Shown: positions 139 to 40,967 of the stretch, one piece after another
Position numbering within the stretch: position 1 is the stretch's first letter
How the letters are laid out: each line of letters begins with the position of its first letter
Origin: Gemmatimonas sp.
GTDB taxonomy: Bacteria; Gemmatimonadota; Gemmatimonadetes; Gemmatimonadales; Gemmatimonadaceae
Reading direction: 5' to 3'
NCBI GenBank assembly: GCA_965279375.1
Contig: OZ257156.1
Location: 3,104,001-3,168,000, forward strand
Length of the DNA: 64,000 nucleotides
Notes under the pieces: model-generated
The model's database searches: none
What the model was told of the DNA's origin: nothing
Seen by the model: only the letters and a program-made list of their open reading frames with translations
Translations under genes and position numbers: made by a program

Positions 139-471
139 ATGATGATGCCGGTATGGGGCGCGATAGCCGTTGCAGGCGCAGGGATCGCGTTCTGGTATGT
201 CGCGACGCGACGCACGGAAGTGCCGTGCACTGTGGATCTCGAAGCGAGCCACGACCATTTCCACGCGCACGTGGATCTCAAGGGCGTGGAAGTCGATCCG
301 GGTGACGAGGTGCTGGTGCACAACACGCCGACGCGCGTGCCGTTTGGAACGCAGCGCACCTTCGAAAGCACCGCCACGGTGCAGCGCGCGAGCTGGCTTC
401 GTCGCCAGTTCGTGAAGCTCACGGGCGGGACCGAGCTGTATGAACTCTACGACGTCGGTTTCGAGGGCTAA
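139..471 (+). CDS. bciE: BciE-like accessory protein of the O2-dependent cyclase, with an N-terminal hydrophobic segment
   Basis: EVPCTVDLE..HFHAHVDL..V.PGDEVLVH...TATVQRAS.L..LTG matches the alphaproteobacterial BciE pattern as I recall it. Lies directly upstream of acsF; purine-rich AGGAGAGG/AGGA upstream of ATG 139. Confidence 0.75.
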   Translation: MMMPVWGAIAVAGAGIAFWYVATRRTEVPCTVDLEASHDHFHAHVDLKGVEVDPGDEVLVHNTPTRVPFGTQRTFESTATVQRASWLRRQFVKLTGGTELYELYDVGFEG

Positions 472-1567: not shown

Positions 1568-3028
1568 ATGAGCGAGACGTCCAAGACATCCTCGGTGGCC
1601 ATTCGCACGTGGCAGAAGTTCGGCACGAGCATCCTACCGTTCGCCGATGTCGCGACGGCGGAATTGCCGCTCAGCCGCCTCATGCGGCTGGCGCTCTTCC
1701 AGCTGTCGGTGGGCATGGTGCAGACGCTGTTCGTCGGCACGCTCAATCGCGTCATGATTCTCGAGCTGCGGGTGCCAGCGTCGCTGGTGGCCATCATGCT
1801 CGCGATTCCGTTGCTCGTCGCGCCGTTCCGGGCGCTCGTCGGCTTCAAGTCGGACACGCACCGCAGCGTGCTGGGATGGAAACGCGTGCCGTACCTCTGG
1901 GGCGGCACGCTGCTGCAGTTCTCCGGCTTGTCGATCATGCCGTTCGCGTTGCTCGTACTATCCGACGGCCCGCGCACGGGACCGGTGTGGGGCGGCTACG
2001 TGGGCACTGCGATCGCGTTCCTGCTGGTTGGCGCGGGTGCACACACCACGCAGACGGCGGGTCTCGCGCTCGCGACCGACGTGGTGTCGGAAGACAAGCG
2101 ACCGCGCGTGATCGCGCTGATGTATCTCATGATGCTGCTGGGCACCTTGGTCAGCGCGTTGATCCTCGAGGGGCTGCTGCGCGACTTCAATCCGACCAAG
2201 CTGATCCAGGTCATTCAGGGCACGGCGGTGTTCACGGTGTTCGTGAATCTGATGTCGCTCTGGAAGCAGGAAGCGCGGGTGCGCGGCGTGGAAGAGTACA
2301 AGAAGGGCGAACGGCGTCCGATGTTCCGCGACGCGTGGCGTACCTTCGCCGCCGGTGGACAGGCGGTGCGACTGCTGGTGGCGTCGGGGTTGGGCTTCTT
2401 CGCCTTCAACCTGCAGGACGTGCTGCTGGAGCCCTATGGCGGCGAAATTCTTGGTCTCAGCGTCTCGCAGACCACGCTTTTGACAGGTATCATGGCGGTA
2501 GGCGCGGTCGCCGCATTTGCGCTGTCGGCGGCGATGCTGCGTCGACACCACGATCCGATTCGGTTGGCAGCGCTTGGCGTGCTGATCGGCGTGGCGGGGT
2601 TCGCGATGATCGTCTTTGCAAGTCCGCTCGAATCAGCGGCGCTGTTCCGCCTTGGCGTGATGCTGATCGGTTTTGGCGAAGGCTTCTTTGGTGTGGGAAC
2701 GCTCTCGTTCGCGATGCAGATGCGGGATCCGTCGCAGCACGGCATTGCACTGGGCGCGTGGGGCGCGGTGTTCGCCACGGCCGAGGGGCTCTCCTTCGCT
2801 CTCAGTGGCGTGATGAAGGACTGGCTGTCGCATCTGGTGCAGCGCGGAGCACTGAGCCCCGGGTTGAACCTGCCGTCGGTGCCGTACTCGGTCGTGTACC
2901 ATCTCGAAATTCTGGTGCTGTTCGCGACGCTCGTCGCACTTGGACCTCTCGTAGCCCGTCGCGCCGTCGGTCAAGCCGAGCGTGACCGCAGCGCGCGCCC
3001 GTTCGGGCTCGCTGATCTTCCTGCTTGA
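1568..3028 (+). CDS. lhaA: PucC/LhaA-family MFS protein for light-harvesting complex assembly
   Basis: [53 protein letters not shown]; located upstream of puhA. Confidence 0.93.
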
Positions 3029-3056
3029 CCACCCTTCAACGCACGGAGCTGTTGCC

Positions 3057-3257
3057 ATGCAATACATCGATGGGGCACAGATCGCCCTGTACGCCTTCTG
3101 GATCTTTTTCGCCGGGTTGATCATCTACATCCGTCGGGAAGACAAGCGCGAAGGGTACCCGCTCGAGTCTCCGCAGGGTCCGCGCGACGGGTGGCCGAAA
3201 TCGGCCGGCCCGAAGAAGTTCATTCATCGGCCGCATGGCGGCGAAGGGACGCACTGA
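3057..3257 (+). CDS. puhA: Reaction centre H subunit, N-terminal transmembrane polypeptide (H1)
   Basis: [36 protein letters not shown] is the RC-H N-terminal TM helix plus REGYPL motif. GGAG RBS upstream; 66 aa. Confidence 0.92.
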
Positions 3258-3799
3258 TGTCTGAGATCAAGGCGGTGCCGGTCGACCACTTCAACGGGTC
3301 GCCGCTCATTCCGACGGGCAATCCGATGATCGATGGTGTCGGTCCGGCCTCCTGGGCCAATCGCGCCGACGAGCCCGATCGCACGTTCCACGGCGCGCCG
3401 AAGATCGTGCCGATGCGTCTCGATCCGACGTTCTCTGTCGCCAAGGGCGATCCCGATCCGCGCGGCCTGCCGGTCTATGCGCTCGACAAGCAGGTCGCCG
3501 GTACGGTCGTCGAGTTGTGGGTCGATCGCGCCGAGCCGCAGATCCGCTACTACGAGGTGAAGCTGGCCGACGGCGGACGTCATGTCATGCTGCCCTCCGG
3601 TTACGTGCAGTGGCCGAACTTCGGTCTCTGGGGCAACGATCGTCTGCTCGTGAAGGCGATCACATCGACGCAGTTCTCCGATGTCCCGGCGATCAAGCGC
3701 GACGACCAGATCACGCTGCTCGAGGAAGACAAGGTCATGGCGTACTATGCCGGTGGGCATCTGTACGCGACGGCTGCCCGGAGTGAGCCGCTTCTATGA
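3257..3799 (+). CDS. puhA: Reaction centre H subunit, cytoplasmic PRC-barrel polypeptide (H2)
   Basis: PTGNPMIDGVGPASWANR, DPDPRGLPV, LWVDRAE..IRYYEV, QITLLEEDK..YYAGG. The start overlaps the H1 stop (TGATG). Confidence 0.92.
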   Translation: MSEIKAVPVDHFNGSPLIPTGNPMIDGVGPASWANRADEPDRTFHGAPKIVPMRLDPTFSVAKGDPDPRGLPVYALDKQVAGTVVELWVDRAEPQIRYYEVKLADGGRHVMLPSGYVQWPNFGLWGNDRLLVKAITSTQFSDVPAIKRDDQITLLEEDKVMAYYAGGHLYATAARSEPLL

Positions 3800-4558: not shown

Positions 4559-5071
4559 ATGAGCGGTCCCATTCATTTCGAGCCGGAACCGGGCGCACGA
4601 CCCGGCGCAGAAGCGACGATGCACGTGCCCAAGCCGGCACTCATCATGGCCGCTGCGCTCGTCGTGGTCGTCTTTGCGCTCGCCATCTCCGCGCGCGTGT
4701 TCGGATTCGGTGCATTCCGCGAGACCGCGTCCACCGTGCTTGCCGAGCGACAGCTCACGTTTACTGACGCGCCCGACGCCGGCATCATCGTGGAGGACGC
4801 CAAGACGCACACCGTCGCGGCACATCTGCCGCCGGCCAGCAACGGATTTCTGCGCGGTGCGTTGCGTGCGTTGACCCGCGCCCGCAATCTCGCCGGCATT
4901 GGCGCCGAACAGCCGTTCCGCCTCGTGCGCTACACCGACGGCCGCTTGGTGCTGCACGATCCGGCCACCACGCAGAGCGTCACCATCACGAGCTTCGGCC
5001 CGACGCAGATCGAAGCGTTCGACAAGCTGCTCGTGGTCGGACCGGAACCGCATCAGGTGTCGGCACACTAG
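4559..5071 (+). CDS. puhC: Photosynthetic complex assembly protein PuhC
   Basis: One TM, GFLRGALRAL.R.R, PFRL...DGRLVLHDPAT, SFGPT..AF. Confidence 0.9.
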   Translation: MSGPIHFEPEPGARPGAEATMHVPKPALIMAAALVVVVFALAISARVFGFGAFRETASTVLAERQLTFTDAPDAGIIVEDAKTHTVAAHLPPASNGFLRGALRALTRARNLAGIGAEQPFRLVRYTDGRLVLHDPATTQSVTITSFGPTQIEAFDKLLVVGPEPHQVSAH

Positions 5072-5193: not shown

Positions 5194-6960
5194 TCAACGG
5201 GATTCCCGCTGGCCCGTCGCGTTGACGTTTACGGTGCACGCGAGATCAGGCCCGGACCGCATGCGGCGGAAGAACACGATGCTCACCGTGAGCTGCAGTG
5301 ATCCGTCCGGCGGGAAACGTCCCGTGAGTCGCGTGATCAATGCCGTACTGGTGCGCGCCTGGTCCGGCATGATGCGGGGCGTCGACGCGAAGAACCCCTC
5401 GCGATCCACGTTGCTCGGGAATGTGTCGCCGCCATCGAAGGCAATCACCAGCGTGTCGGCGTTGGGCAGATGCAGGACCGTCGCGCGATCGACCGTCTGC
5501 GGCGCCCGCGTCCACACCGACGTACACTCCTTCGAGCCCACCGCAGTCGCTGCCCCGTAGCGCACGAGATAGCGACCGGCCACGCCGCGTGCGCGCATCC
5601 CGTTGTCGACCGCCGCCACGGCCGGCGCTTTCCCCTTCGCTCGAGCGTCGCGCGACGCCGACATCTCTGCGCCCGTCATCGTTGGCGCGCTGCCGGCGGC
5701 GCGGAAGCGCACCGTGCTGCCGAACTCGGTGATGATCTGCTCGACGTCGTCCTTTCGCACTTCATGGCGCAGGCCGGTGCGCATATCGCGAAATACAACC
5801 GTGCCGCTTCGCACGATGTCCACGCGCCCCACCATGCGCGTGCCGTCGGTCAGCACGAGCTCGTCGAATGCAACGTTGGTTGGGCGTGCCGGCGTGAGCG
5901 ACGTGGCGGCCGTCGGCACTGACGAGCCACTCGCGCGACGTGCCGGCTCCACGAACATCATTCGAGCGGAGTCCGCGCCGGATCCCGGGAGCGCGGCGCG
6001 CGTGATCGACGGGACACCCGGCGCTGCGCCCGCCGCAACGGCGCCCATTGCGTTTGCACTGAGCGGGGGCGCGGTCGCCAGCCCGGCGCGCGCGCTGTCG
6101 AGAATGGCCGCGCTCACTCCTGATGTGCGCTGCGTGCTGTCGGCATTCACAGCGGTATTCGCAGCGGTATTCGCAGCGCTGGTCGTCGCGCGCGACGTGA
6201 CGCTGTCCAGCGGCGCCGGTTCCGCCTGCGCGCGCGCGGCGAGTTCGCGTTCGGCCTTCCGATCCTGTCGAATGGACACGGCCATACGAGCGATGAACAG
6301 CAGATACGACGTGCCCGCGAGAATGACCATCGTGCGCACGAACTTGGGGCTCAGCGACGGCAGCGAGGTTGGACGCATCGGTGCCGATCCCCGCGCCATC
6401 GGTCGCGTCGTCGCGCGTGCGTTGGCGCGCGGCGCTGGACGCGCAGCGCTCACGCGCACAGGTGCGTTCGTCGCGCGCGGCGTGAGGGCACCTGCGCGAG
6501 GTGCACCGACCGCTGGGTTCGCTCCACTCGGCGCAACCGCCGCGCTGCGCGTTGGTGTGGACGATCGCTGTATCGTGACCGGGCTCGGCGGCTTGGGCGG
6601 TGGCGCAACGCGCAGCAACTCCTCGGGGATCACGCCAAGCGCGAACCCCCACGTCTCCGCGGCCCAGCGCGCCATCTCCGGCTGCACAAAGCGTTCGGCC
6701 GACCATCGCATCACGAACGGCGAGGAGAGTGCGTCCCATCGCGCCGATTCGAGCGGCTGGTCCGGCAGGCGCTCACGCCAACCGCGGCGAATCGCCTCTA
6801 GCAATAGTTCGGCGAGTGGCCGCGCGTCGCTCCCCGTCTCGTCCAGGAGGCGATTGCGAAAGAGCGCGAGCGACGCGTCATCCCATTCCGGCGTGCCTTG
6901 CGCCAGCAGCATGCGCAACGCGTCGCGCATGCGCGCACGCGGATCGGCGAAGGTGGTCAT
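5194..6960 (-). CDS. Hypothetical single-pass membrane protein (N-terminal helical domain, Pro/Ala linker, TM, extracytoplasmic beta domains); paralogue of 7034-8341
   Basis: N-terminal LLDETGSDARPLAELLL..RFVQPEMARWAAETWGFALGV; TM MVILAGTSYLLFIARMAVSI; C-terminal RGVAGRY..GSKEC..LAC. Start uncertain (6960 or 6987). Confidence 0.75.
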   Translation of the reverse strand: MTTFADPRARMRDALRMLLAQGTPEWDDASLALFRNRLLDETGSDARPLAELLLEAIRRGWRERLPDQPLESARWDALSSPFVMRWSAERFVQPEMARWAAETWGFALGVIPEELLRVAPPPKPPSPVTIQRSSTPTRSAAVAPSGANPAVGAPRAGALTPRATNAPVRVSAARPAPRANARATTRPMARGSAPMRPTSLPSLSPKFVRTMVILAGTSYLLFIARMAVSIRQDRKAERELAARAQAEPAPLDSVTSRATTSAANTAANTAVNADSTQRTSGVSAAILDSARAGLATAPPLSANAMGAVAAGAAPGVPSITRAALPGSGADSARMMFVEPARRASGSSVPTAATSLTPARPTNVAFDELVLTDGTRMVGRVDIVRSGTVVFRDMRTGLRHEVRKDDVEQIITEFGSTVRFRAAGSAPTMTGAEMSASRDARAKGKAPAVAAVDNGMRARGVAGRYLVRYGAATAVGSKECTSVWTRAPQTVDRATVLHLPNADTLVIAFDGGDTFPSNVDREGFFASTPRIMPDQARTSTALITRLTGRFPPDGSLQLTVSIVFFRRMRSGPDLACTVNVNATGQRESR

Positions 6961-7033
6961 GCCGATGCACCCATGCACGCCAAGCATGGCGAACGACGCG
7001 CCGCAGCGCTGTGTGCTCGGACCAGAAGGCGCA

Positions 7034-8341
7034 TCATTCCGCCAGCCGCTCGCCGATCAGTTCAGCCACGATCGCGCACTCCTGTGTGCGCGCCCAGCGC
7101 AGAATCGCTGCGGTCGTCGTGTGCGTCTCGGCGATGAAGCCGTCGGGCGTGAAGCGGCCGCTCATGCGAAACTGCCACGTCACGCCGTCGGTGGTGCCGG
7201 TCATCGGCCCCGCGTCGAAGAACGCATCGGGCGTCAGTGAGCCCACCACATCGCGCGAGGCGAGCGTGAAGCTGAATGTGCCCGGCGTGTGCGTGATCAC
7301 TTCGACCGTTGTACGACCCTTCGCCAGCGCATCCGCGACGCGAGAGCAGCTCGGGCTCCCGGTCACCTGCACGCCGTGCTGCCGCACGCGGTAACGCCCG
7401 CCGACGCCACGCGAGATCAGATGCGGTCCGTCGAGTGGTGCCGAGACGGTTGGGGTGAGCGCCGCGATTTCGGCCGCCGTGGTCGGTGCGCCGGCGGTGG
7501 CCGGGATCGGTTGCATCGGGCCAACCGCCGCGACGCCGATCGAGTCCGCGGTGCTGCCCGCAGAGACCACGGGCAATCCTGCGGTCGCCGCTACAGAGTC
7601 CGTCTTGCGACCCGACAACGCGAAGTACGCCGCAACAAAAACGCCGACCGCCGCGAACGCGATGGCCCCCAGCGACCAGCGCTCGAGGCGACGCAGCTGC
7701 GCGAGTTGTGCGGCATTCATCGCCGGCGAGAGCGTGCGCCAACGCGGTCGTACCGCGCGCGCCATGGCCGGATGCGCCATCGCCGGGTGCGGCGTGTTCA
7801 GCGTGGCAAAGGGTGCACTTGGCGTCGCGCGCGCCCCAAACTTCGAGCGCTTGGGTGCCGGTGGCGGCAGCGGCACCGGCCGCGCGTACGGTGCCGTGCG
7901 CGGCGGAGGTGCCGTGGCCGCCCCACCGATCGACGGCGCGTGGCTGGCGGCGGATGCGTTCGCTGTTGACGCACCGTCGGACGCCATTGCGAGCGCTGGC
8001 TGCACGATCTGCGTCGGCGCCACATCGAGCGCGGCTCCCCAGGCGTCCACCAGCCACCGTGCGACATCGGGCTGCAGATAGCGCGTCGCCACGAGCTGGT
8101 GCACCAGCGGTGCGCGGCGCGTGTCCCACGGTGCACGCACGTCCTGTCGCTGCAGTCGAGGACGCACGAGTGCGCCAGTGGACAGCAACAGGTCCACGAG
8201 CGGTCGATGATCACTGCCGCACTCGTCGAGCAGCAGATTCAGGAACTGCGACGGCGCCGTGTCGAGTAGCGCCGCGTGTGCGCGATACGTCGTCGCGAGC
8301 GCGCTCGCCGTGCGCAGGAAGGCGTCGTGGGCGCTCGACAC
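7034..8341 (-). CDS. Hypothetical single-pass membrane protein, paralogue of 5194-6960
   Basis: LLDECGSDHRPLVDLLL..RYLQPDVARWLVDAWGAALDV; TM WSLGAIAFAAVGVFVAAYFAL; C-terminal RGVGGRY..GSPSC..QEC. GTG start 9 bp after the kinase stop. Confidence 0.75.
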   Translation of the reverse strand: MSSAHDAFLRTASALATTYRAHAALLDTAPSQFLNLLLDECGSDHRPLVDLLLSTGALVRPRLQRQDVRAPWDTRRAPLVHQLVATRYLQPDVARWLVDAWGAALDVAPTQIVQPALAMASDGASTANASAASHAPSIGGAATAPPPRTAPYARPVPLPPPAPKRSKFGARATPSAPFATLNTPHPAMAHPAMARAVRPRWRTLSPAMNAAQLAQLRRLERWSLGAIAFAAVGVFVAAYFALSGRKTDSVAATAGLPVVSAGSTADSIGVAAVGPMQPIPATAGAPTTAAEIAALTPTVSAPLDGPHLISRGVGGRYRVRQHGVQVTGSPSCSRVADALAKGRTTVEVITHTPGTFSFTLASRDVVGSLTPDAFFDAGPMTGTTDGVTWQFRMSGRFTPDGFIAETHTTTAAILRWARTQECAIVAELIGERLAE

Positions 8342-8350
8342 GCGATGTGC

Positions 8351-9787
8351 CTAGTGCAAGACGTCGATGCGCAGGACGCGCGCCGGCAACTCATCGCCGA
8401 TGCGCACCGTGAGCCCCGGCAGACACTCCAACGACGCATTGCGACCCACCACCGTTCCTCTCGACGGCCCGTCGAGCACATGCCACGGCGTATCGCTCGT
8501 GTTCACCATCCACCACTTCCCGCCATGCTGCGCCACGTAGCCGCGCGCATCGCGAATCGCGCGCTCGTTGGGCAGCACTCCGCTCTTGAGGTGCCAGTCG
8601 TGCAGCGCGAGATGATGCCAGAACACCGTCACATCACCTTCGTCCACGATGCCCGTGCCCGTGTCACGCAGATTGCGCGCGACGATGACCGGCGCCGAGA
8701 TGCGCTCATCGCCGCGCATGGACGTCAACGGCAGCCCGGGGCCCAGCAGCGTCCACTGTCCGGAGGGCAGGGGATAGACCAGCTGCATGGTGCGATAGAG
8801 CGCGAGCTCCCACTCGGCGGCATCCGCGCGACGATCGGGCGCATGCAATCCGTCCACGAACGTCTGCGTGAAGCAGCGCGTGAGATAGGGTCCGAGTCGC
8901 GTGAACGGAATCTGGATCGGTTGCGACGGAGGATTTCGGCGGTCGGTGGGATGCTCCACGAACAGCGCCTTCGCGCCCATCGAGAGTTGCTCGTCTTCTT
9001 CGGCCGAGCGCGTGCTGTTGACGCGCTTGCCCTGCAACGGATGCCGCTGCAGCAGCAGTTCGTAGAGCAGCACGGCCAGTGCGTGCTTGTCCGTCGCAAT
9101 CGACGGCTGCGCCTTGTTGGCCAGCACTTCGGGCGCGATGTATCCCGGCGTGCCCAGTACCGATGGCGGTGCGACGCCCGGCACCACGAGCGAGTCGATG
9201 TCGATGATGCACGCCTCGCCGCCCTTGGGATCCACGAGCACGTTCTTGTTCGACAGGTCCGCGTGCGCGAGACCAGCCATGTGCAGGCGACGCACCGCAC
9301 GCGCCAACCGCACGCCGATTTGCAAGCGCGTCAGCAGCGTGCCCGCCTCGGCGGCGGGCACGAACTTCGACGCCTTGCCGCCGGAGAACCAGCGCACCTC
9401 CTTCTCCTGGCGCTGTCCGAAGCGATCGGTGAAGTAGAACGTCGGCTTGTACGTGGGCGTGACGACGGCGAGCGGCGGCCACACGAGTTGCTGGCGACGC
9501 GCGAACTCGAGCGGAATCGCGTTGGCGCCATCCACCATGCCCACTGGCCAGCAGAAGTACGGCATCCAGTACGCGCCGTTGGTGGCGAGCGTCGGATTGT
9601 AGTTGGTGAGAATGCGCGTCAGCCGATCGACGCGCTCACGTCGATCGGAGAGATGGCCGTAGAAAAAGCCGACTGCGTGTTGCCGATCGCGCGTGAGAAA
9701 CACGCGCTTCTCGGCGCCGGTGCCGACGGGCTCGTCCTCGATCTGGAGGACACGCCCGTCGGTTAAACGGACGGCGACGACGCCCAT
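8351..9787 (-). CDS. TerY-P-type (YegI-like) Ser/Thr protein kinase with a possible FHA-like C-terminal domain
   Basis: GTGAEKRVF, CWP, HADLSNKNVL, IIDIDSL, GTPGYIAPE, TDKHALAVLLYELL..HP; follows PP2C and vWA genes. Confidence 0.88.
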   Translation of the reverse strand: MGVVAVRLTDGRVLQIEDEPVGTGAEKRVFLTRDRQHAVGFFYGHLSDRRERVDRLTRILTNYNPTLATNGAYWMPYFCWPVGMVDGANAIPLEFARRQQLVWPPLAVVTPTYKPTFYFTDRFGQRQEKEVRWFSGGKASKFVPAAEAGTLLTRLQIGVRLARAVRRLHMAGLAHADLSNKNVLVDPKGGEACIIDIDSLVVPGVAPPSVLGTPGYIAPEVLANKAQPSIATDKHALAVLLYELLLQRHPLQGKRVNSTRSAEEDEQLSMGAKALFVEHPTDRRNPPSQPIQIPFTRLGPYLTRCFTQTFVDGLHAPDRRADAAEWELALYRTMQLVYPLPSGQWTLLGPGLPLTSMRGDERISAPVIVARNLRDTGTGIVDEGDVTVFWHHLALHDWHLKSGVLPNERAIRDARGYVAQHGGKWWMVNTSDTPWHVLDGPSRGTVVGRNASLECLPGLTVRIGDELPARVLRIDVLH

Positions 9788-10794
9788 GCGACGAACAGCG
9801 TACGGTCATCGTTCTCGCCGCGCTTCTCGAAGGCGAGCCACTCCATCAACGCATGCACCGGATCGGGCGCGCCAAACACAGTCGCGCGAAAGCCGGGAGT
9901 CACGCCGGCCGCGTTGGCCGTCGCCTCGGTCACGCCCTCGCGCAGCTGCGCGACGATTGCCGGCGCATGGCGCGCGAACGGATACCACGGATCTTCCACG
10001 CCATCGGTGGCCAGCACGATCACCGGCCAGTCGGCCAGCGCGCGCACCGCGACCGACGCGCTCAACCGCTCCGAGGCGCCGTCGTCGGGAAGGAAATGCG
10101 TGACTTCCCCGGAGAACTCGCCCGAGTCACCTGCGTGCGGCGAGGTCGCCGTGCCGTCCGCGCCAATCAGTGCGAGCCCACCGTCCCCGACCTGCATGGT
10201 GGCCAGCTGCGCTCCATGCGCCGCCGCCAACAGCAGCGTGGTGCGAAGGTCGCGTAGCGCGAGTCCTGCCAACTCCGAGAACTGGCGCATCGCCAGGTTG
10301 GCGGCCGCTCCAGCGCGCTGCATCGCCTCTCCCATCGCCTCCGCCGGTGCAGCGCCGTGGTGCAGGGCGTCACGAAGGGCGTGCGTGGCCACATGCGTGG
10401 CAATCGCCGATCCGATACGACTCCACGGCGCGGAGCCTGCGCCGTCGGCCACCGCGGCGCACCAGCCACCGGAAAAGGTGAGCAACGCGGCGGCGTCTTC
10501 GCGATGCTCGCCGCGATGCGCGTGCAGCTTGCCGCGGCGCGACGCGGCGAGCAGAGACCACGGACCGGATGCGGCGCGGGTGCCCGTCGCTTCGAGCAGC
10601 ACGCCAGAAGGCGCCTGCGTCGCGTCAGGAGGCCGCAAACCGGGCGCAACGGCTCCGAGGTGCGCTAGCCACTCTTCGGGGCACCACGGCGATTCTGGGG
10701 CGTTTGTGGCCCACGTCGCGCGCGGCGGTGCGACCTCTGTCGGAGCGGGAGCCTGCTCGGCGCCCGCTCCGGTCGGTGTTTCGGGTGCGGTCAC
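9763..10794 (-). CDS. PP2C-family protein phosphatase (YegK-like)
   Basis: SRRGKLH..REDA, AVADGAGSA, TTLL, QVGDG, LATDGV, NDDRTL. Confidence 0.9.
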   Translation of the reverse strand: MTAPETPTGAGAEQAPAPTEVAPPRATWATNAPESPWCPEEWLAHLGAVAPGLRPPDATQAPSGVLLEATGTRAASGPWSLLAASRRGKLHAHRGEHREDAAALLTFSGGWCAAVADGAGSAPWSRIGSAIATHVATHALRDALHHGAAPAEAMGEAMQRAGAAANLAMRQFSELAGLALRDLRTTLLLAAAHGAQLATMQVGDGGLALIGADGTATSPHAGDSGEFSGEVTHFLPDDGASERLSASVAVRALADWPVIVLATDGVEDPWYPFARHAPAIVAQLREGVTEATANAAGVTPGFRATVFGAPDPVHALMEWLAFEKRGENDDRTLFVAWASSPSV

Positions 10795-10797
10795 GCG

Positions 10798-11439
10798 TCA
10801 GGGAACGATCGTGATGCCCGGCGGCGGCGGCGGGAGCGTGATCCCTGCGCCATCGCCAAGGGCGCCCACCTTCGCGCTCGTCTGCTTGACGGACGCGGAA
10901 ACGAAGCGGAAGAACGCCTTGAACGCGTCGGGGGACATGTCCTGCATCTGGATGACGCTTTCGGTGACCTGCTTGAGCACCGACGTGTCGGCCTGATCGC
11001 CGCAGGCGACGGCGATGATGTTGGCCGGCCGGCGATCGCGCAGCTGCTGTGCGTACATGGGCCACTCGGTGTCCGTCGGCGCACCGTCCGACAGAATGAA
11101 CACGAGCGGGCGCCAGTCACCCTTCACTTCGGCGGTCGTGCGCACCAGCTCGCGATCGAAGACGTCGAGCAGCATGCGGAGACCATCGCCAAAGTGTGTG
11201 TTGCCGCTGGCGACGAGGTCCGGCGGATTGAACGCGGCCACTTCGGTCAGGGGCACGAGCTGCTGTGCGCTGTTGGAGAACGTCAGCACCGAGAGGTACG
11301 CGCTTTCGATAGCCTGCGGATCGCCGAGCAGGTCGCGATGCAGCTGTCGGATACCTGACTTGACGGACTCGATGGGCGTGCCCTGCATCGAGCCGGAGAC
11401 ATCGGCGAGGATGTAGACGGGAAGGCGGCGGGTAGACAC
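10798..11439 (-). CDS. terY: TerY-like vWA domain protein (YegL-like)
   Basis: RRLPVYILADVSGSM (MIDAS), DPQAIE, GDWRPLVFILSDGAPTD, FFRFVSASV, C-terminal LPPPPPGITIV. Confidence 0.9.
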   Translation of the reverse strand: MSTRRLPVYILADVSGSMQGTPIESVKSGIRQLHRDLLGDPQAIESAYLSVLTFSNSAQQLVPLTEVAAFNPPDLVASGNTHFGDGLRMLLDVFDRELVRTTAEVKGDWRPLVFILSDGAPTDTEWPMYAQQLRDRRPANIIAVACGDQADTSVLKQVTESVIQMQDMSPDAFKAFFRFVSASVKQTSAKVGALGDGAGITLPPPPPGITIVP

Positions 11440-11641
11440 GGTCTCGGAGGTCGGAAGGGGACGGCGTGCCGTGCGAGCGCAGCACGGTCTGAGGGAAGCT
11501 TATCGCGGTGTGGGCATGAACGCCGCCGACCGCGCATTCGGTTTCGTCGAATGTCGTCGCCGGCGCAGCGCCGGTTCGTCGATCGATTGTCGTTCGTCTT
11601 GCTACGCATCGCGCGCTGTCGTGGATCCGCGAAGCCCCCGG

Positions 11642-11676
11642 AACGCAAGACCCCGTGACGCCGAAGCGCCACGGGG
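11642..11676 (-). terminator. Probable intrinsic terminator of the puf operon
   Basis: Minus strand CCCCGTGGCGC-TTCG-GCGTCACGGGG followed by TCTTGCGTT, 60 bp after the pufC stop; the U-tract is weak. Confidence 0.65.
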
Positions 11677-11736
11677 CCGGGCCGCGCGGTAGGCCAGTGG
11701 CCAGATGCGCAGCTAGGAGCGATGCAACGTCGTGCT

Positions 11737-12867
11737 CTAGCGCGTCCCGCCAGCCGGTCCGCCGGTCGCCGTGCCGGTGCTCGGCGCGGACGGTCCCTTG
11801 GCGGAGCTCTTCACGGCGGGAGCAACGGTCGGAGCAGGCAGCGCATTGAGCGCGCTGTCGACTGCCGGCGTCGCGGCCGTGCCAATGCCCTTGAACGGCA
11901 CGCCATTCCACTCGGAACGTCCCCACAGAGCCGGATAGTGCTTGGCCATCTGGGCCGCGTAGAGCGGCTTGTAGTTGCCGTTGTGGCACGTCAGGCACTG
12001 CGCCTTGGGCGCGTCACCCATCGTGCCGAGGCGAACCGACGGATAGACGGGCTGCAGCGGCGAGAGGTAGTTCGTGTTCAGGTCTCGCAGCATCAGGATG
12101 CCGTGCATCGCCGTCACGCGCTGTGGCGGTGCCTGCGTCCAGCTCGCGAACTGGCGGGTGTTGTGGCAGTACGTGCAGTTGACGCCGAGCGACTTGGACT
12201 GGCTCATCATCAGTGCATACGTCCACTCCGCCTGCTTGACCGAGCTGCGATTCGCGTTGGACGGAGCCAGTGCCTGCGTAATGACGCGGGCGCCATCGCG
12301 ATCGAGGTAGTGCCGCAGGTAGTCGTTCTGATCGGAGTAGAACCACAGTCCGTTCGGAAGCGGCTTGCCCAGGTGGCACGTGTAGCAGGTAACGCCGGTG
12401 TTCTTGACGTGCGCCGAGTACTGACCGTTGATCTGCCGCGTCATCTGCAGCATGCGGCGTGCGACCAGCTTGGTGTAGATCGGCTTGCCGTTCGCGAGCG
12501 TGTCGTCGGCCAGATTGGCGACGTTGTGGCAGTAGGCGCAGTTACCCGTGCCGGCCACCCAGGTGCTCATCGCCGTCATCGTGCGGAGAAATTCCGTCGG
12601 GGAGACGTCGTTCAACACCTGCACGTTCCGCCAGGGAAGCGGACCCGGAGGAGACTCCCCTGCCGGTGGCAGGGGATCCGGGATCTTCACCTGCTTGAAC
12701 TTCTCCATCACTTCGCTGTGCCGGTAATTCTGCTCCATGGCGACGCCGCGGTAGCCGACCTGCACACTGTCGGTCTTGTTGTCTTCGATGCAGGCACCGA
12801 GCGACAGCAGCAGGACAGGGGCAGCCGACAGCGCCGTGGCGCGCAGGCGATGCGAGAACGACCTCAT
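11737..12867 (-). CDS. pufC: RC-bound tetraheme cytochrome c subunit
   Basis: Lipobox LSLGAC, QVGYRG, four CxxCH motifs (CAYCH, CYTCH, CTYCH, CLTCH). Confidence 0.97.
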
Positions 12868-32166: not shown

Positions 32167-33408
32167 TTACTCGTAGCGCAGTGCTTCGATGGGATCGAGC
32201 GCGGAAGCGCGCCTCGCGGGGAGCAACCCGAAGATGATGCCGATCGCGACGGAGACGCACACCGCGATGATGGTCAGGCCAATCGGGACTGGCGCATCGA
32301 CCGCAAGCGCGAGTGATGCGATGCGTCCCAATGCGAGTCCGACGACTATGCCGATCGCGCCACCAATTCCGGTGAGCGTCGACGCTTCAATCAGAAATTG
32401 AAACAGGATATCGCGCTTCGTCGCACCGAGTGCCTTGCGTACGCCGATTTCGCGCGTGCGGCTGGTGACGGAGACCGTCATGATCGCCATCACGCCAATG
32501 CCGCCCACAAGCAGTGCCACGGCCGACAGCACGATCATGACGAGGAAGAAGACGCTCGTCAGGTTGTTGAAGGTGTCGAGCACCTGATCCTGCGTGATGA
32601 CGTCGAACGTGTTGCCATCGCTGGGGCGCAATCGACGTGCCTCGCGCAGCGACATGATCACAGCGCCTTGGGCGTCGGCAACGCTCACACCATCGCGCGG
32701 CTTGACGGGGATCCAGAGCCCGTTGGTGCGATCGAAGTCGAACTGGTGATCGAGCAGCTTGTACGGCACCACGGCACCGACGGCCTGCCCGGGTGGTGCG
32801 AAGATGTTGCCCGGTTCCTGCCAAAGGCCGATCACCTCCACGGGGCGACCGCCGACACGCACCCATTTGCCGAGGCTCTGTTCGCGACCGAAGAGGCGCA
32901 GCGCGGTTCGTTCCTGCAGCACCACAACGGAAGCACCGGACTCCATTTCACTCCTGCTGAACCAACGGCCCGATTGCAGCTCGCCCCCCTGAATGAGCTG
33001 AAAGCCGTCGTCCGCGCCGAACACCGCCACCGGCTGTGATCGCTCCCCGGCATATTCCACGCGTGCAAGCGCCTGTCCCCAGATCCCCGCGTAGCCGACC
33101 TCCGGGAGTTTGCGAATGCGTTCCGCTTCGCGCTCGCTCATCTCCGGGCGGATGCGTACGTCCTTGGGAAGATCGTCCGGGTTGAGCGGCACCTGCGAAA
33201 ATTTCCGCAGCACGTAAAACGTGTTGGGCCCCGCGATCTCGAAGGTGTGCGCTATCTGCTGCTGAATGCCTTGGACGATCGCGGCCATCGCCATCACCGT
33301 CGCCACCCCGATCACCACGCCAAGAATCGTCAGCGCGGAGCGCAACTTGTTTGCACGTAGCGACTCGATCGCAATGCGAATGTTCTCGCCCATCGCATCG
33401 ACGCGCAT
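32167..33408 (-). CDS. MacB/FtsX-like ABC permease 8 (type B, divergent)
   Basis: ANKLRSALTILGVVIGV, GGIGVMAIMTVSVTSRTREIG, LDPIEALRYE. Confidence 0.93.
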   Translation of the reverse strand: MRVDAMGENIRIAIESLRANKLRSALTILGVVIGVATVMAMAAIVQGIQQQIAHTFEIAGPNTFYVLRKFSQVPLNPDDLPKDVRIRPEMSEREAERIRKLPEVGYAGIWGQALARVEYAGERSQPVAVFGADDGFQLIQGGELQSGRWFSRSEMESGASVVVLQERTALRLFGREQSLGKWVRVGGRPVEVIGLWQEPGNIFAPPGQAVGAVVPYKLLDHQFDFDRTNGLWIPVKPRDGVSVADAQGAVIMSLREARRLRPSDGNTFDVITQDQVLDTFNNLTSVFFLVMIVLSAVALLVGGIGVMAIMTVSVTSRTREIGVRKALGATKRDILFQFLIEASTLTGIGGAIGIVVGLALGRIASLALAVDAPVPIGLTIIAVCVSVAIGIIFGLLPARRASALDPIEALRYE

Positions 33409-33411
33409 GGA

Positions 33412-34656
33412 TCAGGTCTCCGCGCGCATGGCGGTGATCGGATCGAGCTTGGACGCGCGCGTCGCCGGGTACACGCCAAACAGCACTCCGATGCCCGCGC
33501 CGAGGGTGAGCGCGAGCGCGATCGACCATCCGGTGACGCGGGCGGGCAGGGGAGAGAAGGCCGCGATCGCCTGAGCGAGACTCCAACCCGCGATCACACC
33601 GAGGATGCCGCCGAGGAGCGCGAGCGCGACCGCTTCGGCGAGAAACTGGCGTCGGATGTCCACCGATGTGGCGCCGACCGCTTTGCGCAGCCCGATCTCG
33701 TGCGTTCGCTCGGTCACGGCCATCAGCATGATGTTCATGATGACAATGCCGCCCACCAGCACGCCGATCATGACGACCGCAGGGACCACCGCAAAGAGCA
33801 CGCTGGTCAACTGATTCCAGAACTCCAGCAGCGCGTCTGCCGTATCGATCGAAAAGTTGTTCGCATCGGTCGGACGCAGCCCGCGCGCGACGCGCATGGC
33901 TTCTTCGGCACGCGCCATTGCCGGCGCGACCTCTGCCGCTTCACGCAACTTGACCGAAACCGTGGTGGTCTGTCGCCGACCGTAGATCGATTCGAACGCG
34001 GTGATGGGGATCAGCGCGAAGCCGTCGAACGACTGTCCAAGCACGCGCCCTTTCCGAGCGACCACGCCAACGATCGTGAAGCGCTGGCCCATAATGCGCA
34101 CTTCCTGGTCGATCGGCTCGGCGCCATCGAACAACGTCTTGGCAACGTCCGCTCCCACGACCGCGACGTTGCGACGCTCCCGCACGTCGATCTCGCTGAG
34201 CGGGCGGCCATCGGAGAATCGATAGTCCTGCACGACTTGATAGTCGCTCGTGACGCCGAAGAGCTGCACACTGCCTAACGTGCGATCGCGCCACACGACG
34301 TCGGCCTGCGGCGTGGGCCACCCCGACTGCAGGCTGATGGCCAGCGCATTCGGGAGCGCGGCGCGCACCGCCTCCGCATCCGCCTCGCTGATCTTGGGAC
34401 GGCGCTGCAGCACACGGTACTGATCGTCGTTGAACAGTCCTAGACTGATCGGGACGCGTCGCAGCTGGAAGGTGTTCATGCCGATCATGGCGTCGGCAAT
34501 GTTCTCCTTCACGTACGCATTCATGCCCTGAATGATCGCCACGACGGCGACCAGAAATCCCACCGACACTACAATGCCCAGCAGGGTGAACGCAGTCCGC
34601 AGCGGATTCACCCGAAGCTGTCCCAACGCCATGCGGAGTACGTCCGAGAATCGCAT
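33412..34656 (-). CDS. MacB/FtsX-like ABC permease 7 (type A, divergent)
   Basis: RVNPLRTAFTLLGIVVSVGFL, GGIVIMNIMLMAVTERTHEIG. Confidence 0.93.
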   Translation of the reverse strand: MRFSDVLRMALGQLRVNPLRTAFTLLGIVVSVGFLVAVVAIIQGMNAYVKENIADAMIGMNTFQLRRVPISLGLFNDDQYRVLQRRPKISEADAEAVRAALPNALAISLQSGWPTPQADVVWRDRTLGSVQLFGVTSDYQVVQDYRFSDGRPLSEIDVRERRNVAVVGADVAKTLFDGAEPIDQEVRIMGQRFTIVGVVARKGRVLGQSFDGFALIPITAFESIYGRRQTTTVSVKLREAAEVAPAMARAEEAMRVARGLRPTDANNFSIDTADALLEFWNQLTSVLFAVVPAVVMIGVLVGGIVIMNIMLMAVTERTHEIGLRKAVGATSVDIRRQFLAEAVALALLGGILGVIAGWSLAQAIAAFSPLPARVTGWSIALALTLGAGIGVLFGVYPATRASKLDPITAMRAET

Positions 34657-34669
34657 GGCGTGAGCGCGG

Positions 34670-35926
34670 TTACTCGTGCCGCAGTGCTTCGACGGGATCC
34701 AGGCGTGAGGCGCGCACGGCCGGGAGCATGCCGAACGCCACACCGGTGACGGCGCTGGCGACGAGCGCGGTCACCACGGTGGAGAGCGGGAGCGACGCAG
34801 GGATCGGACTGTTCGCACGAATCGCCCACGCCAGCAGCGCGCCGATGATCAGTCCGAGAATCGCACCGATGGACGTGAGCGTGGCCGCCTCCACCAGGAA
34901 CTGCCAGCGAATGGTGCCTGCAGTGGCACCCAGCGCCTTACGCACGCCGATTTCACGGGTCCGTTCGGTCACCGAGATCATCATGATGGCGACGACGCCT
35001 ACGCCGCCCACCAGCAGCGCCACCGCCGAAAGTGCGAGACCGACTGCGAAGATCGCACCGAACAGCTGGTTGAACGTGTCCATGATGCGGTCCTGCTCAA
35101 CCAGATAGAAATCGTTCCGATCACCCGGCTTGAGGCCGCGCCGCGCGCGCATCGATGCCAGCGTTTCGTCCATCACTTCCGACTGCACGGCATCGCTGCG
35201 CGGCCGCACGAGCAGCGACAGCCCGCGCTTGAACGCATCGAGATGACGCACTGACGCCTGCAGCGGAATGATCGCGCGCGGCGTGTCCGGCCCCTTGCCC
35301 TCGAGCGACTTGAGGAAGCCCGCCTTGGGGTGATAGATGCCAATCACGGTGAACTGCTGGCCATTGATCTGGATCTGTTTGCCCACCGGTTCCGACTGTC
35401 CGAACAGCTGCGTCTTGAGCGTGTCGTTGATCAGCACCACCGGCTGTCCGGCGTCATGCTCATTCTTGGTGTAGTTGCGGCCCGGGAAAATGTCCGCCGC
35501 ATCCACCATCGGCCACTCGCTGCTGTACGCGTCGTAGCCGACGTTGTCCACGCGGCTGTTGCGATACGAAAAGTTGCCTTGGCCGCCCAGCACGCCGATA
35601 ACGGTCTCGACGCCGGGCACGCGCTTGATCATCTCCCACTCGTCGAAGGAGATCGCCGGGTTGCGTCGATCGGGGCACTTCTCGTCGGTACCGTCGCAGG
35701 CGTTGATGCCCGCGCCCTGACGCTGCACGATGAACGTGGTCGCGCCGATCGCCTGCAGGTCTTGCTGGAACGACTGGCGAATGCCGTTGACGACCGAGCC
35801 CATCGCCACGACGACGAACACGCCGATGGCCACGCCCGCGATCGTCAGTGCGGCGCGCACCTTGTTGATGCGGATGGCCTCGAGCGCCATACCCACACCC
35901 TCGAGGATCAGGAGAAAACGATTCAT
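34670..35926 (-). CDS. MacB/FtsX-like ABC permease 6 (type B)
   Basis: NKVRAALTI, CDGTDEKC, GGVGVVAIMMISVTERTREIG, LDPVEALRHE. Confidence 0.93.
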   Translation of the reverse strand: MNRFLLILEGVGMALEAIRINKVRAALTIAGVAIGVFVVVAMGSVVNGIRQSFQQDLQAIGATTFIVQRQGAGINACDGTDEKCPDRRNPAISFDEWEMIKRVPGVETVIGVLGGQGNFSYRNSRVDNVGYDAYSSEWPMVDAADIFPGRNYTKNEHDAGQPVVLINDTLKTQLFGQSEPVGKQIQINGQQFTVIGIYHPKAGFLKSLEGKGPDTPRAIIPLQASVRHLDAFKRGLSLLVRPRSDAVQSEVMDETLASMRARRGLKPGDRNDFYLVEQDRIMDTFNQLFGAIFAVGLALSAVALLVGGVGVVAIMMISVTERTREIGVRKALGATAGTIRWQFLVEAATLTSIGAILGLIIGALLAWAIRANSPIPASLPLSTVVTALVASAVTGVAFGMLPAVRASRLDPVEALRHE

Positions 35927-35930
35927 GCGA

Positions 35931-37172
35931 CTACTCCTGACGAAGGGCAGTGATGGGGTCGAGCTTGGACGCGCGACTGGCCGGATACATGCCGGCGGCG
36001 ATGCCGACGCCCGCACCCGTGAGCAACGCCGCGCCGATAGACCACGGCGCCACGGCCGCGGGCAACGGCGTCAGTGCCGCGATGGTCCACGCGAGACCGA
36101 TGCCCAGCGCGATACCAATGGCGGCGCCGAGTACGCTGAGCGTCGTCGCCTCCACCAGAAACTGGGAGAGAATGTCCGAGCGCTTGGCGCCAAGCGCCTT
36201 GCGGATGCCGATCTCGCGCGTGCGCTCGGCAACGGCCACGAGCATGATGTTCATGATCACCATCGCGCCCACGACAAGGCTGATGGCCGGGAGCGCCGTG
36301 CCAAAGAGCACGAGGCGTCCCTTGAGTTCGTTGATGAAGCCGAACGCGGCGTCCTGCGTGACGAGTCCGAAGTCATCCGCCTCGCCCGCGCGGAGTCCGC
36401 GAATGGAGCGCAGCGCGCTGCGCGCCAGCTCGATGCCCTCATCGATCTCGGGGCGCGTGTTGGCCTGCACAATCAGCGATCCGATATCGCCGCGCGGACG
36501 GATGATGCGCCCCATCGGCGAGGTGCGCGGCGCGATGGCCAATCGATCAAGGGAGAAGCCGAACACCGACCCCTGCTTCTCTACGACGCCGATCACCGTG
36601 AACGGGATACCGCCGATTTTCAGCGTCCGTCCTTCGGCGTTCAAACCACCAAAGAAGTGCTCGGCCACTTCCACGCCGATCACCAGCACTGGCGAACCGG
36701 TGCGCACCTCCTGATCGGTGAAAGCGCGACCGGTCGTGATACCGAACTTCTTGATCGAGAAGTACTCCGCGTCGGTAGCGACCGTCTGCACCTGCTTGGG
36801 GCGCACGCCGGGCGCCGTCGCGTAGGTGAACGATTCCGACGTCGCAGCCGATGGCATCGTCGGCGGCAGTGCGGCGCGCACGGCATCGACGTCGGTCATC
36901 CTGATCAGCGGACGGCGCGCGGCGTTTCGGAAGTCCTGCCCGCGATTGCCACCGGGGCCGACGTTGTCGAAGCGGCGCAGCGTGAACGTGTTGGCGCCGA
37001 TCAACTTGCCGGCAAAATCTTCTTCGACGTAGCGCCCCATCCCTTCGACGATGGATACGACGGCGATGAGGAACATCACGCCGATCGTTACGCCGAGGAG
37101 GGTGAACGCGCTCTTCAGCTTCTGGACGCGAAGCTGGGACAGGGCCAGGCCAATGGCATCACGGGTCTTCAC
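35931..37172 (-). CDS. MacB/FtsX-like ABC permease 5 (type A)
   Basis: RVQKLKSAFTLLGV, IMNIMLVAVAERTREIG, ALRQE. Confidence 0.93.
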   Translation of the reverse strand: MKTRDAIGLALSQLRVQKLKSAFTLLGVTIGVMFLIAVVSIVEGMGRYVEEDFAGKLIGANTFTLRRFDNVGPGGNRGQDFRNAARRPLIRMTDVDAVRAALPPTMPSAATSESFTYATAPGVRPKQVQTVATDAEYFSIKKFGITTGRAFTDQEVRTGSPVLVIGVEVAEHFFGGLNAEGRTLKIGGIPFTVIGVVEKQGSVFGFSLDRLAIAPRTSPMGRIIRPRGDIGSLIVQANTRPEIDEGIELARSALRSIRGLRAGEADDFGLVTQDAAFGFINELKGRLVLFGTALPAISLVVGAMVIMNIMLVAVAERTREIGIRKALGAKRSDILSQFLVEATTLSVLGAAIGIALGIGLAWTIAALTPLPAAVAPWSIGAALLTGAGVGIAAGMYPASRASKLDPITALRQE

Positions 37173-37194
37173 CCCTCAACAATAACCCAATCGC

Positions 37195-38460
37195 CTACTC
37201 GTGACGCAGGGCCTCCACTGGATCCATGCGGGAGGCGCGCATGGCTGGAGCGGTTCCGAAGACGACACCGGTCAGGATGCTGGCGCCGATCGCCGTGAAG
37301 ATCGCCGAGACCGGCACGGAGGTGGGTACCGGGGTGTAGGTGCGGACCAGCCACGCCAGCACGGTCCCGATCAGCAGGCCGATCGACGCACCGACCGAGG
37401 TCAGCGTCGCCGCCTCGACGAGAAACTGCCAGAGAATCGTGGCACTCGTCGCACCGAGGGCCTTCCGCACGCCGATTTCGCGAGTACGCTCGGTCACGGA
37501 GATCATCATGATCGCCACCACGCCGACCCCACCCACCAGCAGCCCGACCGCGGACAGCGCGAGCCCCACCAGGAAGATCGCGCCGAAAAGCTGGTCGAAG
37601 GTCTCCATCATGCGATCCTGAGCCACGAGCGCGAAGTTGTTGGGCTGGACCGGCTTGAGGCCACGGTGGGCACGCAAGTACGCCGTGACCGCGTCCTGTG
37701 CGTCCGAGACGGGGACCTCCGGACGCGGCTGCACGAAGAGTTGGAGACCCGGTCGCCAGACGTCGAGGTGACGATAGGCGGTGAGCATCGGCAGTAGCGC
37801 GCGGGGGCGGTCGGGGCCGCGCCCGTCGAGCGTCTTGAGGAAGCCCGCCTTTGTATGAAAGACCCCAATGACGCTGAACTGCTTGCCCTCGATCTGGATG
37901 TCCTTCCCGATCGGGTCGCTGTCGCCGAACAGACGACTCTTGAGCGAGTCGTTGATGATGACGACCTGCGCACCAGCATCGTGCTCCGACGCCGAGAAGC
38001 TGCGCCCCGGGGCGATGTCGGCTTGATCGGTCTTGATCCAGTCGGGGCTCTGCGCGTCGTATCCGACGTCCTTGAGATGCCGGTCGTGATACTCGAAGCG
38101 CGTCTGTCCCCCGAGTACGGCCGTTGCCGTCGCGATCTCGGGCAACCTGCGGATCGCGGAGAACTCGGCGAGCGTGATCGCCGGGTTGCGTCGCTCGGGG
38201 CAGGTGTCATCCGTGCCGTCGCAGGCGTTGAACCCGATGCCGCGACGGCGCACCTGAAACGTGGTCACCCCGAACTCGTCGAGGTCCGCCTGAAAGCTCT
38301 GGCGAATGCCGTTGACCGTCGCGCCCATCGCCACCACAACGAAGACGCCGATCGCCACACCCGCGATCGTGAGTCCGGCCCGGACCTTGTTCGCACGCAT
38401 GGCATCGAGCGCCATGCCGATGCCTTCCAGCGCCATGAGCACCCGGTCGACCAGACGCAT
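37195..38460 (-). CDS. MacB/FtsX-like ABC permease 4 (type B)
   Basis: NKVRAGLTI, CDGTDDTC, GGVGVVAIMMISVTERTREIG. Confidence 0.93.
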   Translation of the reverse strand: MRLVDRVLMALEGIGMALDAMRANKVRAGLTIAGVAIGVFVVVAMGATVNGIRQSFQADLDEFGVTTFQVRRRGIGFNACDGTDDTCPERRNPAITLAEFSAIRRLPEIATATAVLGGQTRFEYHDRHLKDVGYDAQSPDWIKTDQADIAPGRSFSASEHDAGAQVVIINDSLKSRLFGDSDPIGKDIQIEGKQFSVIGVFHTKAGFLKTLDGRGPDRPRALLPMLTAYRHLDVWRPGLQLFVQPRPEVPVSDAQDAVTAYLRAHRGLKPVQPNNFALVAQDRMMETFDQLFGAIFLVGLALSAVGLLVGGVGVVAIMMISVTERTREIGVRKALGATSATILWQFLVEAATLTSVGASIGLLIGTVLAWLVRTYTPVPTSVPVSAIFTAIGASILTGVVFGTAPAMRASRMDPVEALRHE

Positions 38461-38465
38461 GTGCG

Positions 38466-39701: not shown

Positions 39702-39710
39702 GCGGCGTTC

Positions 39711-40964: not shown

Positions 40965-40967
40965 GTC

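Follow-up and report, generated by a model that had tools for sequence, protein, structure and literature searches.

A TerY-P-type phosphorylation triad with receptor-like partners in the photosynthesis gene cluster of Gemmatimonas: a putative domesticated envelope-signalling module

The photosynthesis gene cluster of Gemmatimonas sp. contains, within the 64,000-nucleotide stretch of contig OZ257156.1 analyzed here (the window), five intact open reading frames (ORFs) between puhC (4559-5071, plus strand) and pufC (11737-12867, minus strand), all on the minus strand. They encode a vWA protein, a PP2C-family phosphatase, a Ser/Thr kinase and two receptor-like membrane proteins, termed M1 and M2, and together constitute the module. 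The genes and their accompanying features, in window positions, are as follows.

10798..11439, minus strand: vWA protein, TerY-like; 213 amino acids (aa), intact metal-ion-dependent adhesion site (MIDAS), C-terminal LPPPPP tail, Pfam VWA
9763..10794, minus strand: PP2C-family phosphatase; 343 aa, Pfam PP2C_2
8351..9787, minus strand: soluble Ser/Thr kinase; 478 aa, Pfam Pkinase
7034..8341, minus strand: M1, receptor-like; 435 aa, with a helical N-domain and a Pro/Ala linker before its single membrane helix, and a Cys pair in the outer barrel
5194..6960, minus strand: M2, receptor-like; 588 aa, N-domain, linker, membrane helix, Sm/Hfq-like domain, beta-barrel
11642..11713, minus strand: double hairpin with U-rich tail directly past the pufC stop; probable puf operon terminator
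11519..11545, minus strand: bipartite promoter-like motif, GAAAC-N16/17-G[ACT]RTT, of the extracytoplasmic function (ECF) sigma type (AAC and CGT boxes)

From vWA through PP2C, kinase and M1 to M2, the gaps are 3, -25, 9 and 73 nucleotides (nt), with the M2 start taken at 6960 on homologue support (the longest ORF would begin at 6987). A preliminary description of the window had proposed five co-oriented genes for a MIDAS-bearing vWA, a PP2C, a kinase and two single-pass proteins, and this is borne out by the Pfam matches (VWA, E 4.6e-10; PP2C_2, 3.3e-35; Pkinase, 6.4e-15) and by the one hydrophobic segment found in each of M1 and M2, neither of which matches a family in Pfam, NCBIfam, PADLOC or PHROGs. 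None of the module genes has a second copy in the 5.31 Mb genome, and the G+C content at third codon positions (0.79-0.85) is similar to that of the flanking photosynthesis genes. As had also been described, no integrase- or transposase-like gene occurs among the ORFs near the module, read by eye and, for the flanking genes, with Pfam; an Rfam scan of positions 1-32000 gave no matches.

The first three proteins form a triad which, judged by sequence comparison, is of the TerY-P type in the broad sense (definitions from PMC11090510), and lies nearest to the ter-operon form rather than to the OB-fold anti-phage type. The earlier assignment to TerY-P thus holds, with the Pfam matches, the intact MIDAS and 49% identity of the vWA protein to plasmid TerY1. 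The likeness to E. coli YegL/K/I with which it was coupled gives way to the ter operon, since identity to YegL is 34% and the kinase has no BLAST match to YegI at E 0.01, while ter-operon kinases, matched on 2313 plasmid records, share 37% identity with it over 95% of its length. The MIDAS residues D13, S15, S17, T81 and D118 are unchanged in 37 of 37 vWA rows, and mean vWA identity over 30 cluster loci is 90% (PufL 94%, PufM 85%, PufC 76%). The phosphatase is 29% identical to E. coli PphC (YegK), and its catalytic-motif patterns were found in 55-69 of 69 homologue rows.

The kinase has no detectable hydrophobic segment, and its model (pLDDT, the predicted score in the local distance difference test, 89.8) matches the kinase fold at Z ~19. 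D177, N182 and D196 of the catalytic loop and metal-binding site are invariant across the aligned rows. The usual beta3 lysine is replaced by glycine, and 33 of 34 rows have a lysine, K27, in the Gly-loop; the sole row without it (Heliorestis) carries lysine at beta3 instead. The catalytic lysine has thus apparently moved from beta3 to the Gly-loop, a placement also found in the enterobacterial ter-plasmid kinase (the region of kinase residues 22-40) and one which we take to resemble the WNK arrangement. A zinc-ribbon Cys cluster occurs in six outgroup kinases and is missing from 28 Gemmatimonadota rows, the ribbon having been lost. The tail (aa ~365-478) is modelled as a C-terminal beta-sandwich, and may be read as FHA-like from its strand pattern, a reading confirmed by no search (Atlas, PDB profile, and fold lists that were filled with kinases).

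Several known systems share this architecture in part. The ter-operon triad of enterobacterial plasmids (terY1/terY2/terY3-PP2C-kinase; Anantharaman et al. 2012, via PMC11090510) has the same vWA-PP2C-kinase order, the Gly-loop lysine and a C-terminal kinase tail, yet the module differs from it in having one vWA, no TerY-C, TerX or TerD genes, no zinc ribbon and additional receptor genes, and in being chromosomal, vertically inherited and placed inside a photosynthesis cluster. The closest genomic relative outside the phylum (locus L070) is flanked by AIM24, TerY-C and TerD genes, and ter genes flank the outgroup triad L172 as well. Beside the Gemmatimonad module neither ter genes nor a restriction system were found; its flanks are puf/puh or, in a clade that carries it outside the cluster, cysK/cysE and an ECF sigma gene. 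The stand-alone anti-phage TerY-P (Gao et al. 2020, via PMC11090510; PADLOC STK_OB) comprises the same three protein classes; unlike it, the module has no OB-fold profile match in the kinase tail, carries extra receptors and is stable, not patchy. PADLOC returns generic kinase-core matches only (STK_OB at E 0.04 over 44 residues), a silence that is weak evidence because at E 1e-9 no TerY or PP2C match is obtained even for E. coli YegL/PphC or the ter triads. E. coli YegL-PphC(YegK)-YegI likewise combines vWA, PP2C and kinase in a single operon, but YegI is a two-helix membrane kinase with the canonical lysine (bioRxiv 10.1101/819920), whereas the membrane input of the module resides on separate genes.

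These separate genes, M1 and M2, are paralogues, whose N-domains share 42% identity (E 3e-12) and whose C-terminal match is weak. M1, which bears the pair Cys332/Cys422, evolves faster than M2 and is missing in L054, L055, L078 and the outside-cluster clade. M2 was aligned over 38 rows and modelled; the model has a mean pLDDT of 72.7, with folded portions mostly above 85. It comprises a five-helix N-domain (residues 1-115), a disordered linker rich in Arg, Pro, Ser and Thr, a membrane helix at about 205-245, a small Sm/Hfq-like domain at 366-420 (Hfq match at a root-mean-square deviation, rmsd, of 1.0-1.4 over 45-48 residues) and a beta-barrel at 453-588 with invariant Cys479/Cys575. Because of the basic linker and the cysteine pair, both proteins would be oriented with the N-terminus inside and the C-terminus outside. 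The top match of the M2 barrel is the sensor domain of PknI (5xlm; Z 9.1, rmsd 3.7, 118 aligned residues, 14-15% identity), nearly tied with Cap15 (7n34, Z 8.7, second best) and other barrels. PknI, a mycobacterial receptor kinase, likewise pairs a Ser/Thr kinase with an outer beta-barrel borne by a single-pass protein, although the match is one of fold only and in the module the receptor and kinase are separate proteins. The M2 profile and M1 gave no matches at E 1 to chains of solved structures, including the Gemmatimonas photosystem, so that M1 and M2 are neither RC-S nor RC-U (PMC8849296). A prediction of the complex of kinase, vWA and N-domain scored 0.00 and is informative neither way. 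An apparent kinase-M1 fusion (P0055), considered as a Rosetta-stone link, was discarded as a probable assembly frameshift artefact, its middle being out of frame.

The N-domain itself extends well beyond Gemmatimonadota. Its profile finds 585 representatives, and an alignment of the distant set with the Gemmatimonad one has a probability of 99.5. Metagenome loci were picked by the distant set alone, and the best 72 of 570 confirmed loci were used; a vWA, PP2C or triad-type kinase gene occurs in 44 of these 72, and a vWA or PP2C gene in 37. Among loci of at least 4 kb, 30/37 have at least one triad gene and 23/37 at least two, and triad genes agree in strand with the N-domain gene in 86 of 87 cases. 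As to redundancy, 42 of the N-domain loci represent 30 groups at 90% identity and 19 at 80%, with GC from 0.37 to 0.69; as to background, the same profiles match one other vWA and two other PP2C proteins, weakly, among 4277 genes of genome G000. The domain has no profile match of its own in Pfam, NCBIfam or PHROGs, its distant members being matched only through partner domains, and an Atlas search returned only unnamed clusters (0.90-0.91). The fusion partners, from scans in which 49 and 47 proteins were submitted at E 1e-6 and 1e-12, include beta-helix, FGE, WD40, DUF1036, ARC6-IMS, MORN, RDD and Lcl, and further TPR, kinase, HSP70, Sel1, LRR, PIF1, GUN4 and PEGA; a hydrophobic segment is present in 46 of 84 N-domain proteins. 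Three to five N-domain genes with differing partners form arrays, mostly adjoining triad genes, in the metagenome loci L153, L116, L124 and L133, which suggests a diversified receptor repertoire.

The triads that adjoin distant N-domain genes have canonical kinases, and the Gemmatimonad module therefore joins a ter-type core with this adaptor class. No N-domain gene lies within the flanks examined of the closest non-Gemmatimonad triads (L070-L077), and two of the five genomes carry the domain elsewhere, partly adjoining other triad genes. On this comparative evidence the N-domain would be an unnamed adaptor, new here, that ties variable receptors to TerY-P-type triads across phyla. The membrane proteins thus belong with the triad, as first proposed, since they accompany it here and the N-domain does so in other lineages; the proposed number of five components is not fixed, as modules carry one to three receptor genes, for a total of four genes in several lineages and six in one. 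A similar logic is known from conflict systems with effector-associated domains (PMC7159879), where a small helical adaptor with variable fusions (here with FGS, GUN4, WD40 and TPR) likewise lies near a vWA-containing core. Unlike those systems, the module has no MoxR/GTPase core, the N-domain has no Pfam family, and the partner domains in Gemmatimonadaceae are conserved, not diversifying.

PMC7844134 and PMC8547001 describe, without naming them, hypothetical genes that lie between puh and puf; two isolates share them in conserved form, and 3/9 metagenome-assembled genomes of one group have them. The module matches this insert, as had been suggested in the preliminary description. The individual identities of vWA, PP2C and kinase are not new, since the NCBI annotation in a table of PMC11406998 labels them; the available part of PMC12817894 mentions neither kinase nor vWA. 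Literature searches on Gemmatimonas with such genes and on TerY-P turned up no description of the module or of the adaptor domain, although the text or supplements of Anantharaman 2012 and Gao 2020 could mention the domain.

The distribution of the module follows phototrophy closely. In a phylum sample of 401 genomes the kinase occurs in 10 and pufM in 20; all 10 carriers are pufM-positive, and none of the 381 pufM-negative genomes carries the kinase. In a family sample of 401 genomes the kinase occurs in 40 and pufM in 64; 38 carriers have pufM, 39 of 40 have photosynthesis genes, and carriers amount to 2/337 among pufM-negative genomes, one of which (G566) has acsF, lhaA and puhE. These counts are not independent tests, because the genomes are kin. 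Among 53 Gemmatimonadota loci, 38 include cluster genes, three are short contigs and 12 belong to the outside-cluster clade. The location is not sporadic: the module follows pufC in seven genera (with bchO in between in genus g19), and patchy, mobile spread is not seen, the same position being held in 38/53 loci, congruent with the reaction-centre tree. In the outside-cluster clade a four-gene version lies beside cysK/cysE, and 12/12 of these genomes are pufM-positive; in this genus 13 of 14 genomes keep the module and all 14 have pufM. Genus g174 is split, with vWA and kinase after pufC, M1 and M2 after puhE at the other end of the same cluster, and PP2C on a separate contig, all five genes being retained in both genomes examined. 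Though near-exclusive to phototrophs and retained by two genera after becoming unlinked, the module is dispensable: complete photosynthesis clusters without it occur in many genera, the junction holds no module in G224, G611, G689, G551 and others, and no vWA match was found genome-wide in G224, G611, G618 or G629.

Inheritance is vertical, alongside the reaction centre and under purifying selection. Module and reaction-centre distances correlate over 36 loci (Spearman 0.87), and the ratio of nonsynonymous to synonymous substitution against up to seven close relatives (disregarding an out-of-frame pufC row and one mis-hit pufL row) indicates purifying selection: vWA has 0.02-0.04, the kinase 0.05-0.09 and PP2C 0.15-0.26, and M1 and M2 have 0.08-0.31 in their folded parts and 0.10-0.31 in their outer domains. 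The reaction-centre tree (42 rows, with close Gemmatimonas rows thinned) needs five state changes, interpreted as a single gain plus about four losses. An origin inside or outside the cluster is not distinguished (approximately unbiased test, p 0.41), the outside clade being on a long branch.

Some junctions show further rearrangements. In genus g19 (L174, L175, L183, L184) bchO is relocated directly past pufC, with the module next in two genomes and absent in two. Genus g30 (L173:4592-5911, L185:1981-3381) has a gene of ~440-470 aa after puhC, with or without the module. In the outside-cluster genus g29 (L086, L087, L188) the reaction centre belongs to a distinct lineage, the junction gives no puhC match, and puhB is followed by a gene resembling phytoene synthase.

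This history allows the same signalling module to be regarded as a hitch-hiker, inserted once after pufC, tied to photosynthesis by history only and serving a function unrelated to light. Kinase matches are missing in 26/64 pufM-positive family genomes, the five state changes include one clear loss, in G224, whose pufC is ~200 nt from puhC, and genome G543 may be a non-phototrophic carrier; the unlinked carriers, moreover, count as one event, because all belong to one all-phototroph genus. Against this stand the scarcity of the kinase in pufM-negative genomes of the family, its absence from those of the phylum sample, and the retention of the module after relocation or fragmentation by phototrophs of two separate genera; hitch-hiking is unlikely.

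The module seems to be expressed apart from its neighbors. The hairpin downstream of pufC folds with z -2.97, is equalled in stability by 1 of 200 shuffles and keeps its stem in 12/12 aligned loci; a simple terminator scan did not pick it up. It probably ends the puf operon, insulating the module. The promoter-like motif occurs 77-123 nt upstream of vWA in 45/59 loci (11/12 outside the cluster, 34/47 inside), counted in the very regions from which it was derived, and in none of the 59 at four other spacer lengths, nor in any of 155 regions upstream of pufL, acsF or bchO. Its AAC/CGT boxes are typical of ECF promoters (PMC8103513), and it travels with the module outside the cluster. Across G000 it is not enriched (20 sites versus 21-35 at other spacers), so that no regulon can be read from it. 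In 10 genomes a SigK-like ECF sigma factor, with a similar-looking motif upstream, seemed to go together with the module. It was ruled out as the cognate sigma, because the motif is lacking from its orthologues and because, in a set of 80 genomes, several carriers do not have it and non-carriers do. Its locus (L193:3922-6395; G000:C1, about 2.246-2.248 Mb) comprises the sigma gene, a probable anti-sigma gene and a divergent fasciclin-looking gene, and occurs in 28/80 family genomes, mainly but not exclusively phototrophs.

Published RNA-seq of G. phototrophica (PMC11406998) covers the orthologues RS06550-RS06570, which were assigned here from annotation, gene order and size and are expressed at 7.0-8.5 log counts per million. 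All five rise together mildly in light (log2 +0.3 to +0.9; Table S1): at 2 h they gain 0.3-0.5 log2 while pufL/M/C fall by 0.5-1.2, and at 8 h both are up. Under high light puf drops by about 2.5 log2, and the module shows a non-significant change of +0.15 to +0.87 (PMC11406998). Co-regulation with puf under light, which the preliminary description proposed to look for, is thus not seen in these data, and the flat or opposite response marks the module as a separate transcription unit.

These observations bear on a second alternative, in which the module has been co-opted to regulate directly how the photosystem or the photosynthetic membrane is assembled, and would phosphorylate subunits of the reaction centre-double light-harvesting complex, or assembly factors, as post-translational control where control of transcription is weak. 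It accords with the position after pufC in seven genera, the correlation with reaction-centre distances, a vWA conserved as strongly as PufL/BchZ, the relocation of the g174 receptor genes to the opposite end of the same cluster, and the little transcriptional regulation reported for the G. phototrophica cluster (PMC11406998). The conserved hairpin, the module's own ECF-type promoter motif, its flat or opposite response while puf falls, the repeated loss and the many complete clusters without it, and the lack of any solved-chain match for M1 and M2 speak against it; the hairpin, the promoter motif, the light response and the losses likewise argue against the assembly switch earlier suggested, if taken as obligate, and direct control of assembly is quite unlikely.

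Least likely is a resident defence or addiction module, in which the receptors detect phage or competitors, the kinase turns toxic and PP2C acts as antitoxin, stabilising a horizontally acquired cluster: OB-fold-kinase TerY-P-like modules are anti-phage and TerY-P triads accompany restriction systems (PMC11090510), kinase-phosphatase toxin-antitoxin defence is known (KKP, PMC11341870), the variable partners of the distant N-domain family follow a conflict-system pattern and Cap15, the second-best barrel match, is an effector of cyclic-oligonucleotide anti-phage signalling (CBASS), yet the position kept from genus to genus, the vertical inheritance and the purifying selection that acts on the outer domains are unlike typical defence cassettes and tell against the resident defence system first suggested, the module contains no effector or nuclease gene, PADLOC finds only the generic kinase core, expression is constitutive and mid-level, and whole-module loss recurs, which an addiction module should resist.

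The module is thus best described as a domesticated envelope-signalling variant of TerY-P, of putative function, with defence the less likely role. What is directly observed is the set of genes, their intact catalytic motifs, their long shared inheritance and the expression of the orthologues in G. phototrophica. Most plausibly, the module is a split receptor kinase, made up of an outer barrel, a membrane helix, a helical adaptor, a soluble kinase with vWA, and a PP2C for reset, with a stress-type promoter of its own. The outer barrels of M1 and M2 would sense an envelope or periplasmic cue, and the receptors would cluster, perhaps via the Sm-like domain of M2. The cytoplasmic five-helix domains would then recruit the vWA/kinase core, giving a soluble kinase the membrane input that YegI or PknI hold within one chain. 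The kinase would phosphorylate targets in the cytoplasm, the Ser/Thr-rich linkers perhaps among them, and these would be reset by PP2C, with the operon driven by an ECF sigma factor independently of puf. Retention mainly in phototrophs would then reflect help in managing the membrane or photo-oxidative stress of a photosystem-filled cell, not the building of the photosystem. The leading explanation, held tentatively, is therefore that a ter-operon TerY-P triad was domesticated into an ECF-driven Ser/Thr phosphorylation switch, coupled to receptors, that helps phototrophs manage such stress. A broader version is improbable: in it the N-domain would mark a class, spanning phyla and so far undescribed, of vWA-PP2C-kinase systems coupled to receptors, and phototrophic Gemmatimonadaceae would have domesticated one of them as the missing post-translational regulator of a photosynthetic apparatus acquired horizontally, one that senses the periplasm and phosphorylates photosystem or membrane-assembly proteins.

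Several points weigh against the stress-switch explanation. Physical linkage and kinship both confound the association with phototrophy, and the carrier G543 (85% complete, 430 contigs) has no matches to pufM, bchZ, acsF, lhaA or puhE. The barrel match indicates fold, not sensing, because Z 9.1 is within 1 of unrelated barrels. The 80-genome comparison yielded no cognate sigma factor. The rise in light falls below the 2-fold cut-off of PMC11406998, and its second experiment is non-significant, with a false discovery rate above 0.09 (Table S3).

Other features of the window lie apart from the module. A gene of ~110 aa just upstream of acsF (139-471, plus strand), with no Pfam match, recurs in most phototroph clusters examined, including those without the module. 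The puhA gene (2982-3799, plus strand) comes in two pieces, a short one for the membrane and one for the cytoplasm, as in the other phototroph loci examined; the split has been published for Gemmatimonas (PMC8849296). Eight tandem genes of ~415 aa (32167-42215, minus strand) are ABC permease-like by sequence, and similar genes adjoin the kinase in L177 and L178.

The grey "hypothetical" boxes of Gemmatimonadota photosynthesis papers thus gain an identity and a testable mechanism, and the question is directly testable since cultured strains with the module exist. The module is a candidate for a post-translational response in a phototroph whose transferred cluster is little controlled at the level of transcription. 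The adaptor domain, in turn, would offer a handle on the input of the TerY-P-type switch, which is widespread among bacteria.

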